Below, in pieces: positions 6,039 to 30,852 of a DNA stretch of 39,792 nucleotides. The DNA comes from an uncultured bacterium. Its GTDB lineage: Bacteria > Bacillota_I > Bacilli_A > RF39 > UBA660. Numbering within the stretch: position 1 is the first letter of the stretch; each line of letters opens with the position of its first letter. The translations under genes and the position numbers were made by a program. The stretch spans positions 1-39,792 of the forward strand of contig CASEJU010000074.1 of NCBI GenBank assembly GCA_949288335.1, given 5' to 3'. Below the pieces are notes generated by a model. That model made no database searches. It had not been told where the DNA came from and worked only from the letters and a program-made list of their open reading frames with translations.

Positions 6039-7283
<1,245 letters not shown>

Positions 7284-24768: not shown

Positions 24769-26742
24769 ATGAAACATGTAAAAATAATTTGTAAAACGCT
24801 AATCGCCTTAATGATTATATTTTGCACGTGTTACACCATACTCTTTTTATGTGCTAAATATGGCTCTAAAATAGACATAGAAAATTCAAATAGTATATAC
24901 ATGTATGATAAGAATGGAAAAAGCTTCTACGAAGGCAACAACGGTACTAAAAAATGGATAAAACTAAAAGACATATCAAAGAATTTAATAAATGCAACAA
25001 TATATTCGGAAGATAAAAATTTTTATGAACATAACGGTTTTGACATACCAAGAATAATAAAATCTACCTTAATTAACATCAAATCAAAAGATTTAAAACA
25101 AGGAGCATCAACGATAACCCAGCAATACGCAAGAAATTTATTTCTAACGTTTGATAAGACATGGGAACGAAAAATAAAAGAAGCTTGGTATGCATTTAAA
25201 CTAGAAACCCAGTACTCCAAAGATGAAATACTAGAAGGATATTTAAATACCATAAATTATGGAAATGGAATATTAGGAATTGAAAACGCAGCAGAATATT
25301 ATTTTAACAAATCCGCTAAAGACTTAAGTTTAGCTGAAAGCACAATGCTGGCTGGAATACCAAAATCACCAGATAATTACTCGCCATTAAACGATGAGGC
25401 AGCTGCTAAAAAAAGACAAAAAGAAATATTAAAATCTTTGGTTAATAACGGAATAATATCTGAAAAAACAATGGAAGATACCATAAATGTAAAATTATCT
25501 TACTATGGAAAAAAAGAGAACTTAAACTTATCTACTTTAATGTATTATCAAGACGCGGTTATAAGAGAATTACAGGACCTTAAAATAGTAAGTGAAGATT
25601 CTATTAAACAAGAGGGACTAAAAATATACACAAACCTTGATATAGAAGCACAAACATCACTAGAAGACGCAATAAAAAACAACCTAGAAAATAAAGATAA
25701 AATGCAAACAGCAGCGGTAATGATTAATCCTAATAACGGAGCGATAATTGCCCTTGCCGGTGGTAAAGACTACTCTAAATCACAATATAACAGGGCCGTG
25801 CAATCAAAAAGACAAGTAGGCTCTACCATGAAACCTATATTATATTATGCTGCATTAGAAAATGGCCTTACGGCGTCTACCACTTTCTTAAGTAAACCAA
25901 CTACCTTTTCTTTAGGAAATAATCTTACCTACTCACCTAGTAATTACGGAGATATATATCCTAATGATAAAATCACCATGGCTCTTGCAATCGCTTATTC
26001 TGATAATATATACGCCATTAAAACGCATCTTTTTTTAGGAGAAGATACCATGATAAAATACGCAAAAAAAATGGGTATAACAAGTAAATTAGAGGCAAAT
26101 GCATCACTGCCACTTGGAACCAATGAATTGTCTGTTACCGAATTTACTGGAGCCTACGCAAGTTTAGCAAACTCCGGGAGTAGTGTTAAAGCGCACCTAA
26201 TAAATAAGGTAGAAGATGGCAATGGTGATATCTTGTATAAATTTAAAGACAACAAAAAGAAAGTATTAAATAAATCATATACCTATATACTAAGTGAGCT
26301 TCTGGCTAACACATATGATACATCTTTAATAAGCTACACCTCACCTACTTGTGCATCAATAAATCCTAAATTAACCAAAAAATACGCCGTTAAAAGTGGA
26401 ACAACTGATTATGATTTATGGACCGTCGGATACAATCCAGACGTTGTGGTAGGTGTATGGACTGGATATGATGACAATAGAAAGCTATCAAACAGCGAAT
26501 ATAAATATTCAAAAAACATATGGGCTGATACCATAGAAGGATACTTAAGAGGCAAAGATGCATCCTGGTATGAAAAGCCTGATAACGTAGTAGGAGTATT
26601 AACGGATGTGCAAACAGGAGAAGTTGCAACAAATGATTCTAAACTAAAAAAGATACTATATTATATAAAGGGAACGGAGCCCGGTTATAAAAGCAAAACA
26701 ACTAAAAAGAATGCTACAACCAAAAAAACGACTAGCGATTAG
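24769..26742 (+). CDS. Class A penicillin-binding protein (GT51 transglycosylase + transpeptidase)
   Basis: An N-terminal TM segment is followed by EDKNFYEHNGFD and GASTITQQYARN (GT51 motifs). STMKP (SxxK), YSDN (SxN) and KSGTT (KTG-like) follow. Confidence 0.93.
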   Translation: MKHVKIICKTLIALMIIFCTCYTILFLCAKYGSKIDIENSNSIYMYDKNGKSFYEGNNGTKKWIKLKDISKNLINATIYSEDKNFYEHNGFDIPRIIKSTLINIKSKDLKQGASTITQQYARNLFLTFDKTWERKIKEAWYAFKLETQYSKDEILEGYLNTINYGNGILGIENAAEYYFNKSAKDLSLAESTMLAGIPKSPDNYSPLNDEAAAKKRQKEILKSLVNNGIISEKTMEDTINVKLSYYGKKENLNLSTLMYYQDAVIRELQDLKIVSEDSIKQEGLKIYTNLDIEAQTSLEDAIKNNLENKDKMQTAAVMINPNNGAIIALAGGKDYSKSQYNRAVQSKRQVGSTMKPILYYAALENGLTASTTFLSKPTTFSLGNNLTYSPSNYGDIYPNDKITMALAIAYSDNIYAIKTHLFLGEDTMIKYAKKMGITSKLEANASLPLGTNELSVTEFTGAYASLANSGSSVKAHLINKVEDGNGDILYKFKDNKKKVLNKSYTYILSELLANTYDTSLISYTSPTCASINPKLTKKYAVKSGTTDYDLWTVGYNPDVVVGVWTGYDDNRKLSNSEYKYSKNIWADTIEGYLRGKDASWYEKPDNVVGVLTDVQTGEVATNDSKLKKILYYIKGTEPGYKSKTTKKNATTKKTTSD

Positions 26743-26749
26743 TCGTTTT
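26722..26749. repeat. Direct repeat copy 1 / terminator hairpin (contains the pbp stop codon)
   Basis: aaaaaaaCGACTAgcgaTTAGTCGtttt forms the hairpin ACGACTA/TAGTCGT. It is 26/28 identical to 28850-28877. On the minus strand it is followed by U7, so it also terminates the HEPN gene. Confidence 0.85.
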
Positions 26750-26773
26750 AAAAATATTTACATATTAATTATA

Positions 26774-28774
26774 TTATTTATTTATTTTTTTAAAATGTTG
26801 ATTATTATTTAATAGTGATTCCAAAAATTCATAATTATTTAATACTTCAATTAAATCTCCAAATGAAATCAAAGTGCTAAATTTTGAATTTTCATCATAA
26901 TTATCAGTTATTTTTAAATTGGTTTCGGCAATATCATTAAGTTTAGAAATCTCAATACGAAGCTTACCGTGAGCTAAACAATTTCTTATTTTGTTAAATA
27001 TATCCATATTCACATTATTATAGTCATATTTATTAGCTGTACCATTCAATATTTCTGAAACACATAATATTTGTTTTTTTAATTTAATTAATTGATTTTC
27101 TTTCTTACTTATATTATATTCTATATTTTTAAAACTTTTATCAGGTATTAAAAATTTTGATGCAGCTATTTTTAATAATAAAATATAATCTGAGCGATAA
27201 TTACTTATTTCTTTGTTCATCATATAAAATAACTCTTTTTTTTCATTTAAATAATCTTCATAAACTTGTTTAGGAAATCTTACAGTTTCCACTTTTATTG
27301 TAAATTTATTTTGATTATAACAAAATAATAATAAATTGTTTATCAATGACAGCATTATAAGCTCCATTTTTGATTTATAGTTTATATAATCTGATGCGTG
27401 CTCAACTAATCCACTATTTGAAATATTATTAATATTGATTATTTTTTGTAACGTTTTCTGCAAATAATAATCCTTATTATATTTCTTAAATATTAAATTA
27501 TTAATTACTTCTATTTGCGATCCTCTACTCAATTTATAAAAATAATCGGAATTCATTTCATCAATACTGTTTATAATATATTGAATATCTTCTTCCGTCA
27601 ATCTTTTAGAATCTAATTCATCAACACACAAATGTCTTTTCAATGAATTATTGCTTAATACCTGGCTCTTTCCCAGTTTTTTAATACTGTTAAAAAAATA
27701 TATGTCTAATCCTAAATCGTTATCCATTATCTTCTGTTCTTCTGGAGACTTAAAAATTTTTAATTTTATATTATCAACACCAATTAATTCAATACCATTT
27801 AAATAGTTAATAAGTGACTCTTTTGTAAATGGAGTTCTATTAAAGACTGAATCGTTATCTAATATCACTGGCAAAGCACCTTCCAAGAAATAATAGTTAT
27901 ATAAATGATTAAATAAAGACATAAGATGAATTTTCTTAATAGTAAAATTCATTCTATTTTTACCTTCATTGTAGAATTCAACGTTACCATTTTCCAAAAC
28001 TTTATAATTAGAGTGTGCTATGCAATTTCTTATCATTCTAATTATTTTTTTATAATCAATATTACCATTAGTAAGAATAGCATTGTTTGATTCATTAAGT
28101 TCATCAATTCCAAAATCAAATATTAAGACAAATTTCATTAAATCTATTATATTTTGAGGAATAAAATCTAATTTATTATCTAACATTAGCAATTGTGTTG
28201 ATAAGAATATCATATCCAAGTTATTATCCATATTATTATAAATATCATTGAGCATAAAACTCTTCTGTATTAATTTATTCAATACAAACTTATCATTTTG
28301 AGAAATAGTCATATTATTTAATAAAATTAATAAAGTTTTAACATTTGTACTAGCATATTCCAACATAGTATTATTTGATTTTAAGGATTCTATTCTAATT
28401 TCACTTAAATCACCTAGTTTATCATTTAGTTGATACTCTTTATAAAAAATATTATAAGTTGAAACTTCGCTATAAATATCAATATCAAAAACATTTCCAT
28501 CATCAATTATAGTTAGTATAAAACTATTTGTTGCATTAACACCATATTTCTTCATTTTATCAATACTGTATAAGTCATTCAATTCTATATTGTCTAAAAA
28601 AGTAGATACATTTATACCATTGATTTTAGACACTTCTAGCAATTTTCTATTTTCTTCCTTTAATAAAAAATTAAATGCATATAATTTATCATTTATTATC
28701 TTAAATTTTAGGCCTAGGCGATCTTTATTATTAAATATATTTATAATACTATCAAATCTATATATATCTAACAC
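26774..28774 (-). CDS. Orphan tandem-HEPN protein (two RNCxAH motifs), putative RNase / defence effector
   Basis: 666 aa, with a GTG start 7 nt after AGGAGG. AGA AAT TGC ATA GCA CAC (28030-28013) encodes R249-N-C-I-A-H254. AGA AAT TGT TTA GCT CAC (26986-26969) encodes R597-N-C-L-A-H602. Each motif is followed 44-50 aa later by NY[YE]FLE. The rest of the protein matched nothing I recognise. Confidence 0.7.
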   Translation of the reverse strand: MLDIYRFDSIINIFNNKDRLGLKFKIINDKLYAFNFLLKEENRKLLEVSKINGINVSTFLDNIELNDLYSIDKMKKYGVNATNSFILTIIDDGNVFDIDIYSEVSTYNIFYKEYQLNDKLGDLSEIRIESLKSNNTMLEYASTNVKTLLILLNNMTISQNDKFVLNKLIQKSFMLNDIYNNMDNNLDMIFLSTQLLMLDNKLDFIPQNIIDLMKFVLIFDFGIDELNESNNAILTNGNIDYKKIIRMIRNCIAHSNYKVLENGNVEFYNEGKNRMNFTIKKIHLMSLFNHLYNYYFLEGALPVILDNDSVFNRTPFTKESLINYLNGIELIGVDNIKLKIFKSPEEQKIMDNDLGLDIYFFNSIKKLGKSQVLSNNSLKRHLCVDELDSKRLTEEDIQYIINSIDEMNSDYFYKLSRGSQIEVINNLIFKKYNKDYYLQKTLQKIININNISNSGLVEHASDYINYKSKMELIMLSLINNLLLFCYNQNKFTIKVETVRFPKQVYEDYLNEKKELFYMMNKEISNYRSDYILLLKIAASKFLIPDKSFKNIEYNISKKENQLIKLKKQILCVSEILNGTANKYDYNNVNMDIFNKIRNCLAHGKLRIEISKLNDIAETNLKITDNYDENSKFSTLISFGDLIEVLNNYEFLESLLNNNQHFKKINK

Positions 28775-28796
28775 AAATTCACCTCCTATTAATTAG

Positions 28797-28802
28797 ATTA
28801 TA
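28797..28802 (-). promoter_or_regulatory. -10 box (TATAAT) upstream of the tandem-HEPN gene
   Basis: The minus strand reads aaatatagTATAATctaattaatAGGAGGtgaatttGTG. No convincing -35 was seen (TAGTAA at 17-nt spacing). Confidence 0.45.
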
Positions 28803-28849
28803 CTATATTTTTTACCAATTTACTACACGGCCTATATTTTAAACGTATT

Positions 28850-28877
28850 AAAAAAACGACTAACAATTAGTCGTTTT
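28850..28877. repeat. Direct repeat copy 2 / terminator hairpin (contains the ftsH stop codon)
   Basis: aaaaaaaCGACTAacaaTTAGTCGtttt differs from copy 1 only at two loop positions. On the minus strand it is followed by U7, which makes it the ftsH terminator. Confidence 0.85.
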
Positions 28878-30852
28878 CTTCTTCCTCTTGTTTCAACTCA
28901 TTTGATAAGGCTTTTTTTAACTCATCTTTATTCATGGTTGAATAACCTTTAATACCTTTTTCTTTAGCCATTTCTTTTAGCTTTGGTAAGGTAACATCAT
29001 CTAGCATGTCTTCGTCTGGCATTTTTCCGTTTTCTGCTAAGTAATCGATTTGTTCTTTAGTTAAAGTTTCATGTTCAATTAATGATGATGCTATTAAATC
29101 AAGTAAATCTCTATTTTTCTCAATAAGTTTTTTAGCCTTTTCATAGCATTCATTAATTATCTTTCTTACTTCGTTATCTATTTCTAATGCTACTTGGTCA
29201 GAGAAGTTTCTGTTTTTATTGTAGTCTCTTCCCAAGAACGAACTTCCTTCTGGAGTTTCTAATTGTACTGGTCCAAGTGATGACATTCCATATTCTGTTA
29301 CCATACTACGTGCTATTTTAGTAGCCTTTGAAAAGTCGTTATGTGCACCAGTTGTTATTTCTCCAAACACAACTTCTTCTGCAACACGGCCTCCAAGTAA
29401 TCCCATAATTTGTTCTAATAATTCAGTTTTGGTTGCCGTATATTTTTCTTCCTTAGGAAGCATTAGGTTATACCCACCTGCTTGCCCACGAGGTATTATG
29501 GTTACCTTTTGAACATCATTTGCATTATCAAGCTTAATGCCTAGTACCGCATGCCCGGCTTCGTGGTATGCTACTAGTTTCTTTTCTTGCGGAGTATACT
29601 TTTTAGTTACCTTTGCTGGTCCCATTATTACCCTATCTATTGCCTCGTCTATCTCAGACATCGTAATAGCTGATTTTTCTCTTCTTACCGCAAGTAAAGC
29701 AGCTTCGTTAAGTAGGTTTTCTAAGTCCGCTCCAGAAAAACCAACGGTTCTTTTTGCAATGCTATCTAAATGTACGTTTTTAGATAAAATTTTATTTCTA
29801 GCATGAACTTTTAATATTTCTTCCCTTGCTTTCATTTCTGGTAAAGCAACGGTTACTTGCCTATCAAATCTTCCTGGTCTTAATAATGCTGGATCAAGTA
29901 CGTCAGGTCTGTTTGTTGCAGCAATAATTATAATACCTTCATTAGCCCCAAATCCATCCATTTCCGTTAGTAACTGGTTTAAGGTTTGTTCTCTTTCATC
30001 GTGTCCACCACCGATACCAGTTCCACGTTGACGTCCTACAGCATCAATTTCGTCTATGAAGATTAAACATGGTGCGTTTTGTTTTGCTTGTTTAAACATA
30101 TCTCTTACACGGCTTGCACCAATACCTACGTATAGCTCTACGAAGTCAGATCCAGAAATAAAGTAAAATGGTGCGTTAGCTTCTCCCGCAACAGCCTTTG
30201 CAAGTAACGTTTTACCAGTTCCTGGAGGACCTACTAAAAGTACACCCTTAGGTATTCTAGCACCTAATTTAGTAAATTTTTTCGGATTTTTAAGAAAATC
30301 TATTAATTCTTGTAACTCTTCTTTTTCTTCAGGTAATCCCGCTACGTCCTTAAACGTTACCTTACCTTTATCCGGATTAAGTTTAGCTTTGCTTCTTCCA
30401 AAATCCATTGATCCTTTTTGCCCACCAAGTTGTCTTGTAAAGAACCAAAATGCTAAACCAATTAAAATTATGTAAGGTAATACGTTCATTAAGAATATAT
30501 ACCAAGTAGATGAAGTTGGATCTGATTTAGATATTATCTTAAAATCTTTTTCTTCACTAGCTTTTACTATATCTTGTATAACAGTATCAGATAATGGTGT
30601 TTTAACACTAAATGTTTCACCTTGTTTTGCATCTCTTAAAGTACCGTTTAATTGGTAAGTATAAGCTGCAGTACTTGGAGTAATAACAACTTCTTTTATG
30701 TTATTTTTAGAAAGTGCCTTATTAAACTCGTTGTATGTTAATTCCTTATTCATGTCATTAGTCATGTTATAGAAAATCATTATTGCTATACCAATAACTA
30801 AAAGCATAAGATAAGGAAACATTCCCTTTTTCATATTTTGATTATTTTGCAT
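28867..30852 (-). CDS. ftsH: ATP-dependent zinc metalloprotease FtsH
   Basis: Two N-terminal TM segments are followed by Walker A GPPGTGKT, Walker B IIFIDEID-like (LIFIDEIDA), the SRH region and the HEAGHA zinc motif. Confidence 0.98.

Follow-up and report, generated by a model that had tools for sequence, protein, structure and literature searches.

How does an accessory gene come to lie between two genes whose ends leave no DNA between them? The question is raised by a 39,792-nucleotide (nt) stretch of DNA from an uncultured bacterium of the RF39 lineage (GenBank contig CASEJU010000074.1; "the window" below means this whole stretch). In it, the convergent genes pbp, for a class A penicillin-binding protein (PBP), and ftsH are separated by a segment of 2.1 kb that holds a single gene, and the segment is bracketed by two copies of a 28-nt hairpin in which the flanking genes end. 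The inserted gene encodes a large protein with two R-x4-H motifs of the kind that marks the HEPN superfamily. We propose, with about an even chance of being right, that the segment is an accessory single-gene cassette seated in a bidirectional terminator that pbp and ftsH share, that the terminator was duplicated by recombination with a hairpin copy carried by the incoming DNA, and that the arrangement spread through the flanks.

The two hairpin copies, AAAAAAACGACTAGCGATTAGTCGTTTT at 26722-26749 (copy 1) and AAAAAAACGACTAACAATTAGTCGTTTT at 28850-28877 (copy 2), are identical at 26 of 28 positions, differ only at two positions of the loop, and start 2128 bp apart; a repeat finder lists the pair at 93%. 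The PBP stop codon, TAG, opens the right arm of copy 1 (26740-26742), and the ftsH stop, TAA, is read from the opposite strand at 28867-28869, within copy 2. All of this had been described in an initial annotation of the window and is borne out by the sequence. The stem AAAACGACTA-N5-TAGTCGTTTT, with up to three mismatches allowed, occurs at two sites only in the window, both of them these copies, when none is expected by chance (100 shuffles). Both copies fold into hairpins of 10-14 bp (-10.1 to -13.7 kcal/mol, z = -2.8 to -5.4) with perfect stems free of bulges, and they are the only terminator-like sites between 26500 and 29100, versus 0.1 expected. Each copy, as predicted from its sequence and folding, is an intrinsic (Rho-independent) terminator, a stable stem-loop followed by a T run. 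Because the T7 run of both copies lies on the minus strand, they would work best on minus-strand transcripts, copy 2 on that of ftsH and copy 1 on that of the inserted gene. The two copies let pbp and ftsH each keep its last codons, its stop and its predicted terminator; copy 2 would end ftsH and insulate the cassette, and copy 1 would end both the cassette gene and pbp.

The element is palindromic, so that calling the repeat "direct" depends on its asymmetric parts only, the loop and the A7 and T4 runs. The stem-loop bases match at 23 of 25 positions in the direct register versus 21 of 25 in the inverted one, and in both copies A7 stands on the left and T4 on the right. The matter is settled in favor of the direct orientation, as first annotated, because single-copy alleles of relatives carry the copy-2 loop in the same orientation. 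In those alleles the loop, ACAAT, and the TAG that follows it are the last two PBP codons (Asn-Asn) and the PBP stop. The left arm and loop of copy 2 thus repeat a PBP 3' end (..K K T T N N *) without coding for it. The same species is represented by a second sample (L122; related loci are referred to here by such numbers), which also contains the insert and is 98.4% identical over 7.1 kb. Its reverse complement of 6075-6102, corresponding to window 28850-28877, reads AAAAAAACGACCAAAATTAGTCGTTTT, which is a base shorter and has a weaker stem, so that the non-coding half of copy 2 evidently drifts fast.

What the locus looked like without its insert can be seen in relatives. We scanned the PBP protein against 185,579 species genomes, obtaining 58 loci, and fetched 7 kb on each side of pbp. 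The nearest loci come from metagenome-assembled genomes of uncultured gut "Bacilli/Tenericutes/Mollicutes," Clostridium sp. CAG:594, and Candidatus Aphodocola. In 17 species (L011, L015-L018, L020-L023, L027-L029, L034, L037, L038, L040, and L055), whose PBPs are 75-88% identical to that of the window, the insert is absent and convergent pbp and ftsH share a single hairpin, within which or near which their stops overlap (TTAG) or lie at most 9 nt apart. The unoccupied state, with the stops overlapping inside one hairpin, has zero intergenic DNA. The stem is nearly identical to that of the window in most of the 17 species; the empty allele of L011 equals copy 1 exactly, and the ACAAT loop of copy 2 is found in L029, L020, and L027. 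Basal branches of a PBP tree (L037, L038, and L040) are among those with empty alleles, and the occupied alleles are scattered. Copy 2 thus contains a fossil PBP 3' end, and this shows that a single shared hairpin preceded the duplication. The ancestral shared terminator that the initial annotation had supposed is supported by the empty sites and the fossil together, and the search for empty sites that it had advised found them in at least 17 species, so that the HEPN gene is not universal at this locus.

Three other loci carry small variations of the junction. In L025 (8953-8981) and L032 (8969-8997), species of different branches, a homologous mini-insert of ~30 nt (ATGATRTRAACC...AGG..ACATCA, with a small hairpin) interrupts the loop of a pbp|ftsH hairpin that holds no other insert, perhaps as a scar or a tiny element. 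In L036 (8963-9157), pbp and ftsH are separated by a 195-nt spacer from which the canonical hairpin is absent, and the reverse strand of this spacer appears to encode a short hydrophobic peptide.

The hairpin belongs to this junction. In ~1 Mb of related loci it was found at pbp|ftsH only. A scan of metagenomes returned 46 matching stretches, of which ~10 are the pbp|ftsH junction and the rest single unrelated terminators with other loops, and in that scan the hairpin was never present in multiple copies on one contig outside the junction. We considered and rejected a dispersed palindromic repeat of the repetitive extragenic palindromic (REP) or bacterial interspersed mosaic element type, given the two copies in the window and the confinement to the junction in ~1 Mb of related loci (sampled loci, not a whole genome); the same view had been taken on first annotation. 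The stem is equally conserved between species and between the two copies of the window, and the 26/28 identity of the copies is therefore no clock of their age.

The junction is a general, recurrent cargo hotspot and is not specific to the HEPN gene. At least eight unrelated cargo sets occupy it in other species, among them two orphan open reading frames (ORFs) in L012, a single large orphan in L035, L039, and L043, a larger set in L041, and at least two successive cassettes, with the hairpin between them, in L010. All cargo ORFs of at least 80 aa share the orientation of ftsH. Two near-canonical hairpin copies surround the cargo in the window, L006/L013, L012, L019/L110, and L024. In the nested insertion of L010 only the left arm and loop are duplicated (19 nt), with the junction exactly at the boundary of loop and right arm, and the internal terminators of multi-gene inserts differ from the canonical hairpin. 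No integrase, transposase, or other recombinase domain was detected in the window insert, in agreement with the initial annotation, or in 30 cargo ORFs of other species, a subset of the ORFs in their inserts. At the junction, the 58 species loci and ~10 metagenome contigs gave no integrase-bearing element, and no integrase gene lies within the 7 kb fetched on each side of pbp at any locus.

Two kinds of cargo can be described further. In L014 (8957-10531) and L024 (10608-12608) the cargo consists of sigma-70-like proteins with regions 2, 3, and 4 and long inserts. A four-gene orphan module (~192, 606, 597, and 100 aa) is present in L019, L030, L031, and L033, always at pbp|ftsH; its proteins have no Pfam domains and are 32-55% identical between species.

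How old is the insertion in the window? A sister species (L006-L009 and L013) has an orthologous HEPN gene at the same place with 53-54% amino acid identity, and the insertion is therefore old rather than recent. The initial annotation had seen here the footprint of an insertion; a cassette in the hairpin, with the hairpin duplicated, stands, but the footprint is not fresh. Between the two species the HEPN protein is 53% identical, versus 93% for FtsH, 88% for PBP, 67% for TilS, and 55% for DUF1934, and at the DNA level the insert is 70% identical versus 80-85% for the flanks. L012 is the closest species by PBP and FtsH identity, yet carries other cargo. Identity profiles of the window against L012 and L006 gave no recombination breakpoint near the junction, and an exact-sequence look-up of FtsH gave no match. 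No presence/absence polymorphism was found in the window's own species, where the only other sample, L122, is occupied.

Such polymorphism does exist in another species, in which L016 is empty and L110, L079, and L087 are occupied by the four-gene module, with flanks 99.2-99.7% identical to those of L016. Between L016 and L110, 7 of the 18 mismatches in the pbp flank fall within the last 200 nt beside the insert (~1.6 expected), and the pbp-side hairpin of L110 differs from the resident L016 allele at 2 of 28 positions. The mismatch cluster and the hairpin differences indicate that the module was probably imported, along with a foreign hairpin copy, through homologous recombination in the flank. 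A comparison of L016 with L019, tried as proof of an incoming hairpin, was dropped; the loci are only 96-97% identical, and 2/28 differences are not significant there.

Homologues of the inserted gene at other loci tell whether the repeats travel with the gene. Some homologues are mobile cargo. One of them (43% identical), from another taxon, is located downstream of secA and before prfB; a 267-nt direct repeat (85% identical) flanks it and includes a secA 3' end with terminator, and the repeats at this site measure 84-267 nt. In L120, a homologue lies within an integrative element. Others are lone genes in housekeeping contexts without flanking repeats. Because no flanking repeats were found around the homologues in L068, L069, L071, and L072, the repeats belong to the insertion site and not to the gene; bracketing of the HEPN gene by the repeat, as a property of the gene, does not hold.

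Several details of these loci deserve mention in their own right. In L001 (4198-8345; also L002-L005), three copies of the secA 3' end plus terminator bound two tandem cassettes, a pair of 252-aa and 80-aa genes upstream and then the HEPN homologue, with a common 139-nt upstream region. In L002, an element with a relaxase, an excisionase-like helix-turn-helix protein (HTH_17), and a tyrosine integrase directly abuts the first secA copy. In L072 (6510-8527), the HEPN-family gene is split into ORFs of 164 and 508 aa, probably by a frameshift, and may be a pseudogene; the same locus is intact in L068.

Of the mechanisms that could duplicate a whole terminator around a cassette, the best fit is recombination with a hairpin that the incoming DNA brought along and, after that, spread via the conserved flanks. 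Incoming DNA that already bore a hairpin copy would have recombined with the chromosomal hairpin by a Campbell-type single crossover in the short segment common to both. The repeat would then be as long as the shared sequence: 28 nt in the window, 19 nt in the nested event of L010, and 84-267 nt for the homologue at secA. After its formation, the hairpin-cargo-hairpin island could spread, be swapped, or be lost when ordinary homologous recombination takes place in the conserved flanks, pbp and ftsH, and between the hairpin repeats, and it would need no recombinase of its own to move.

Several observations weigh against this account. First, no circular or excised form, donor molecule, or recombinase was seen. 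Second, a homology of 19-28 bp is at the lower limit for a RecA-dependent crossover. Third, in every occupied locus the ends of the duplication coincide with the ends of the stem and its A/T runs, boundaries that would equally fit a structure-specific mechanism or one ancient duplication followed by replacement of the cargo. Fourth, the flanking terminators are not copies of each other in L014, L030, L031, L035, L039, and L043. Fifth, the homologues without flanking repeats do not share the arrangement of the window. Finally, deletion between the repeats regenerates a perfect "empty" site, so that individual empty alleles could be either ancestral or derived.

The last of these points leads to the alternative that survives best, which we consider possible although on balance improbable: the ancestor of the clade was already occupied after one ancient duplication, the "empty" sites are secondary deletions, and the cargo has been swapped by homologous recombination. 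What the window shows would then be an old resident, rather than a cassette that entered an empty site within its own lineage. The whole sub-clade of the window is occupied (L010, L006/L013, L012, and the window itself), two species have orthologous HEPN genes, 53% identical, the four-gene module sits at the site in four distant branches at 32-55% identity, and a deletion between direct repeats would leave exactly the perfect single hairpin that is seen. Empty sites dominate, however, and include the most basal branches (L037, L038, and L040). Moreover, even under this alternative the first event would have been an insertion into a single shared hairpin, since copy 2 holds the fossil PBP 3' end.

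A second alternative, which we regard as doubtful, is that the hairpin is a true site-specific (att-like) recombination site served in trans by a host Xer-type recombinase or by the integrase of an element elsewhere. Cassettes would then behave like cis-mobilizable elements (CIMEs), dif modules, or integron cassettes: a circle bearing one hairpin would be excised and would insert at the junction again. Like the core sites of recombinases, the hairpin has a short center between perfect 10-bp inverted arms, the boundaries of the duplication always fall at the ends of the palindrome, and many unrelated cargos occupy exactly one site with no recombinase detected. A homologue of the window gene lies elsewhere between att-like repeats at the secA 3' end, a site also used by an integrase-bearing element. 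There are precedents as well, in the 28-bp sites and recombinase-less cargo of dif modules (PMC6449649, PMC7399989) and in CIMEs (PMC5704250). On the other hand, the 58 species loci and ~10 metagenome contigs hold no integrase-bearing element at the junction, and the hairpin is nowhere else in the genome sequence sampled. Its center is only 3-5 nt, and the overlap regions of tyrosine recombinases typically measure 6-8 nt. Apart from L010 there is no attC-like array, and internal terminators are not the canonical hairpin. Further, the L010 event duplicated 19 nt only, and the cluster of single-nucleotide differences in the pbp flank of L110 points to homologous recombination.

Several known systems resemble the locus in part. 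CIMEs and tandem accretions of the streptococcal ICESt1/ICESt3 type (PMC5704250, PMC7563491) share with our locus direct repeats of a core-gene 3' end plus terminator and the lack of an integrase inside. Their layout is matched exactly by the secA locus of L001 and L002, with an integrase/relaxase element at the same site. Direct repeats of the attL/attR kind, derived from the target, are present both in the window and around the secA-site homologue, but an integrase-bearing element at the same attB was found at secA only (L002) and not at pbp|ftsH (58 genome loci and metagenome contigs). Unlike CIMEs, then, pbp|ftsH has no cognate integrase-bearing element in ~70 loci, and its repeat, just 19-28 nt long, forms a perfect hairpin in its own right that two convergent genes share. 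With no recombinase domain in its insert or in the 30 scanned cargo ORFs, the locus is also not an integrative conjugative element, an integrative mobilizable element, or a prophage as such elements are usually recognized. The initial annotation had offered an att core or a target duplication to explain the 28 bp; the att-like layout of direct repeats stands, but a target duplication of fixed length does not, given the 19 nt of L010.

The XerC/XerD dif modules of Acinetobacter (PMC6449649, PMC7399989) resemble the locus in their 28-bp, partly palindromic sites, their single-function cargo without a recombinase, and the number of their cargos. Unlike them, the hairpin has a center of 3-5 nt, versus 6 nt between the XerC and XerD arms of dif, and the site is a chromosomal terminator plus the coding ends of two genes, not a plasmid site. 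The sites that flank dif modules are inverted, and the copies in the window are direct. The hairpin is also not known to resemble dif in sequence; the window itself contains neither the dif site nor the xer genes of the host. Integron cassettes (attC) are likewise co-oriented and split by imperfect hairpin palindromes, and L010 has two successive cassettes. However, intI and attI are both missing from the fetched loci, the short stem of the hairpin is perfect and lacks the extrahelical bases that attC has, the cassettes seem to bring Shine-Dalgarno and -10 elements of their own, and internal terminators are unrelated. Oliveira et al. (2017) reportedly described chromosomal integration hotspots between conserved core genes. 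As in such hotspots, one interval here holds different accessory genes by strain and species, and exchange of flanks is suggested by L016 versus L110; unlike in them, the pbp|ftsH interval has zero length when empty, and occupancy accompanies duplication of the shared terminator. For terminator-duplicating insertions as such, we found no direct precedent in the literature.

A further reading, speculative and in our view unlikely, is that in this clade of small-genome gut Bacilli the hairpin is a dedicated cassette-capture site at which a trans-acting, structure-specific recombination activity inserts and excises promoter-bearing cassettes, duplicating the hairpin as it does so. The junction would then be an integron-like platform without a recombinase, resting on the terminator of two essential genes, and one of its cassettes would encode a structurally new, stand-alone double-HEPN effector.

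A third alternative, which we regard as improbable but which is, with the second, a live rival on how the duplication was first made, is an accident of replication or repair at the palindrome that duplicated the hairpin without a recombinase. A fork could stall, switch template to foreign DNA, and re-prime upstream of the hairpin, or a cruciform could be cleaved and its hairpin-capped ends opened and joined. The duplicated unit is exactly the structure-forming element with its A/T runs, its length varies from 19 to 28 nt, no recombinase was detected in the ORFs scanned at occupied sites, and the site is where two transcription units run head-on into one strong hairpin that ends both. But this evidence is purely structural, with no intermediate observed, and the accident leaves tidy, expressed, co-oriented sets of inserted genes unexplained. 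Moreover, the copies of a true duplication should begin identical, and L110 has a pbp-side copy unlike the resident allele. That a transposase made a target-site duplication here is hardly credible: the insert is discrete and lies between direct repeats, but a domain scan of its single ORF found no transposase, a repeat search found no terminal inverted repeats beyond the hairpin itself, the duplication is not of fixed length (28 nt in the window versus 19 nt in L010), many unrelated cargos use the site, and 28 bp is far outside the usual lengths of transposon target duplications.

Whichever of these mechanisms operated, the locus is a natural example of how accessory, probably defensive genes enter where two essential genes share a terminator and leave no spare DNA. 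Doubling the whole hairpin is the solution found again and again, with many cargos and without a recombinase in view. Should the hairpin turn out to be a true recombination site, the junction would represent a new type of platform for cassettes in an uncultured gut lineage of medical relevance. Otherwise, the locus still shows with good resolution how a hotspot turns over by homologous recombination, one species having both empty and occupied alleles. The features of the locus are collected below.

Table 1. Features of the pbp-ftsH interval in the window
Feature	Position	Strand	Description
pbp, class A penicillin-binding protein	24769..26742	+	Pfam Transgly 5.4e-64, Transpeptidase 1.4e-23; end codons K K T T S D + TAG inside copy 1
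Hairpin copy 1	26722..26749		A7-CGACTA-GCGAT-TAGTCG-T4; predicted bidirectional intrinsic terminator for pbp (+) and inserted gene (-, then T7)
Insert between hairpin copies	26750..28849	-	2100 bp; one gene and its own leader
666-aa ORF, double R-x4-H (HEPN-like) protein	26774..28774	-	GTG start; R249-N-C-I-A-H254, R597-N-C-L-A-H602
Leader of inserted gene	28775..28849	-	75 nt; Shine-Dalgarno GGAGGTG 28780-28786, five nt before GTG; TATAAT 28797-28802
Hairpin copy 2	28850..28877		A7-CGACTA-ACAAT-TAGTCG-T4; predicted terminator of ftsH (-, then T7)
ftsH	28867..30852	-	Pfam Peptidase_M41, AAA, FtsH_ext; end codons E E E N D + TAA inside copy 2

The insert also differs from its surroundings in composition, with a GC content of 19-25% versus 31-40% in pbp and ftsH. 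Its leader has no good -35 box, and a consensus promoter scan listed no promoter in it, so that the TATAAT is a candidate only; the leader matches no Rfam family.

What does the cassette encode? The R249-N-x-x-A-H254 and R597-x-x-x-A-H602 motifs are invariant in 25 homologues, and the regions around them are homologous to each other (hhalign 90%, E 1.7e-6), so that the R-x4-6-H motif of the HEPN superfamily is present twice. Small remote homologues of the C-terminal module lead to PF18736 (HEPN pEK499_p136), with P0095 at E 1.4e-5 and 25.3 bits, below the cut-off of 26.6, and precomputed weak PF18736 matches are listed for homologues. Two results count against the HEPN label. The 666-aa protein itself has no meaningful direct assignment in Pfam, PADLOC, or NCBIfam, and a Foldseek search of the whole-chain AlphaFold2 model (pLDDT 85.9, pTM 0.86) against PDB and BFVD returned nothing below E = 0.2. 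The label given on first annotation thus retains its two invariant motifs but has no direct family match, only a transitive, sub-threshold link to PF18736. On these grounds "double HEPN-like effector" seems a reasonable working name. The protein is most likely a stand-alone HEPN-type RNase effector of the defense or abortive-infection kind, to judge from its two homologous R-x4-H modules; we infer catalysis from the motifs alone.

The family is small, with 29 clusters at 90% identity and 91 representatives at 50% identity among 1.84 billion, and a profile search of a word-indexed set of 5.8 billion proteins gave no further relatives. A PDB sequence search returned coiled-coil noise only. The gene stands alone in every context examined. 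In having two R-x4-H motifs and two homologous modules in one chain of ~670 aa, the protein recalls Cas13, which has two R-x4-6-H motifs in one chain, and its C-terminal module is linked through the small homologues to small HEPN proteins of the pEK499_p136 type (PF18736). Unlike Cas13, it has no CRISPR array in the window and no known RNA (no Rfam match) near its gene, and Foldseek matched its model to no PDB chain, Cas13 included; we therefore find no support for a whole-chain fold like that of Cas13 or of any other known protein. The interest of this cargo lies in the combination of a tiny family, two invariant HEPN-type motifs, and a confidently predicted structure that matches nothing solved.

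A last observation concerns the other side of pbp. In L019 (2968-7000; Clostridium sp. CAG:594), ~4 kb separates DUF1934 from pbp, versus ~120 nt in the window and most relatives, and this gap may be a second variable spot beside pbp.

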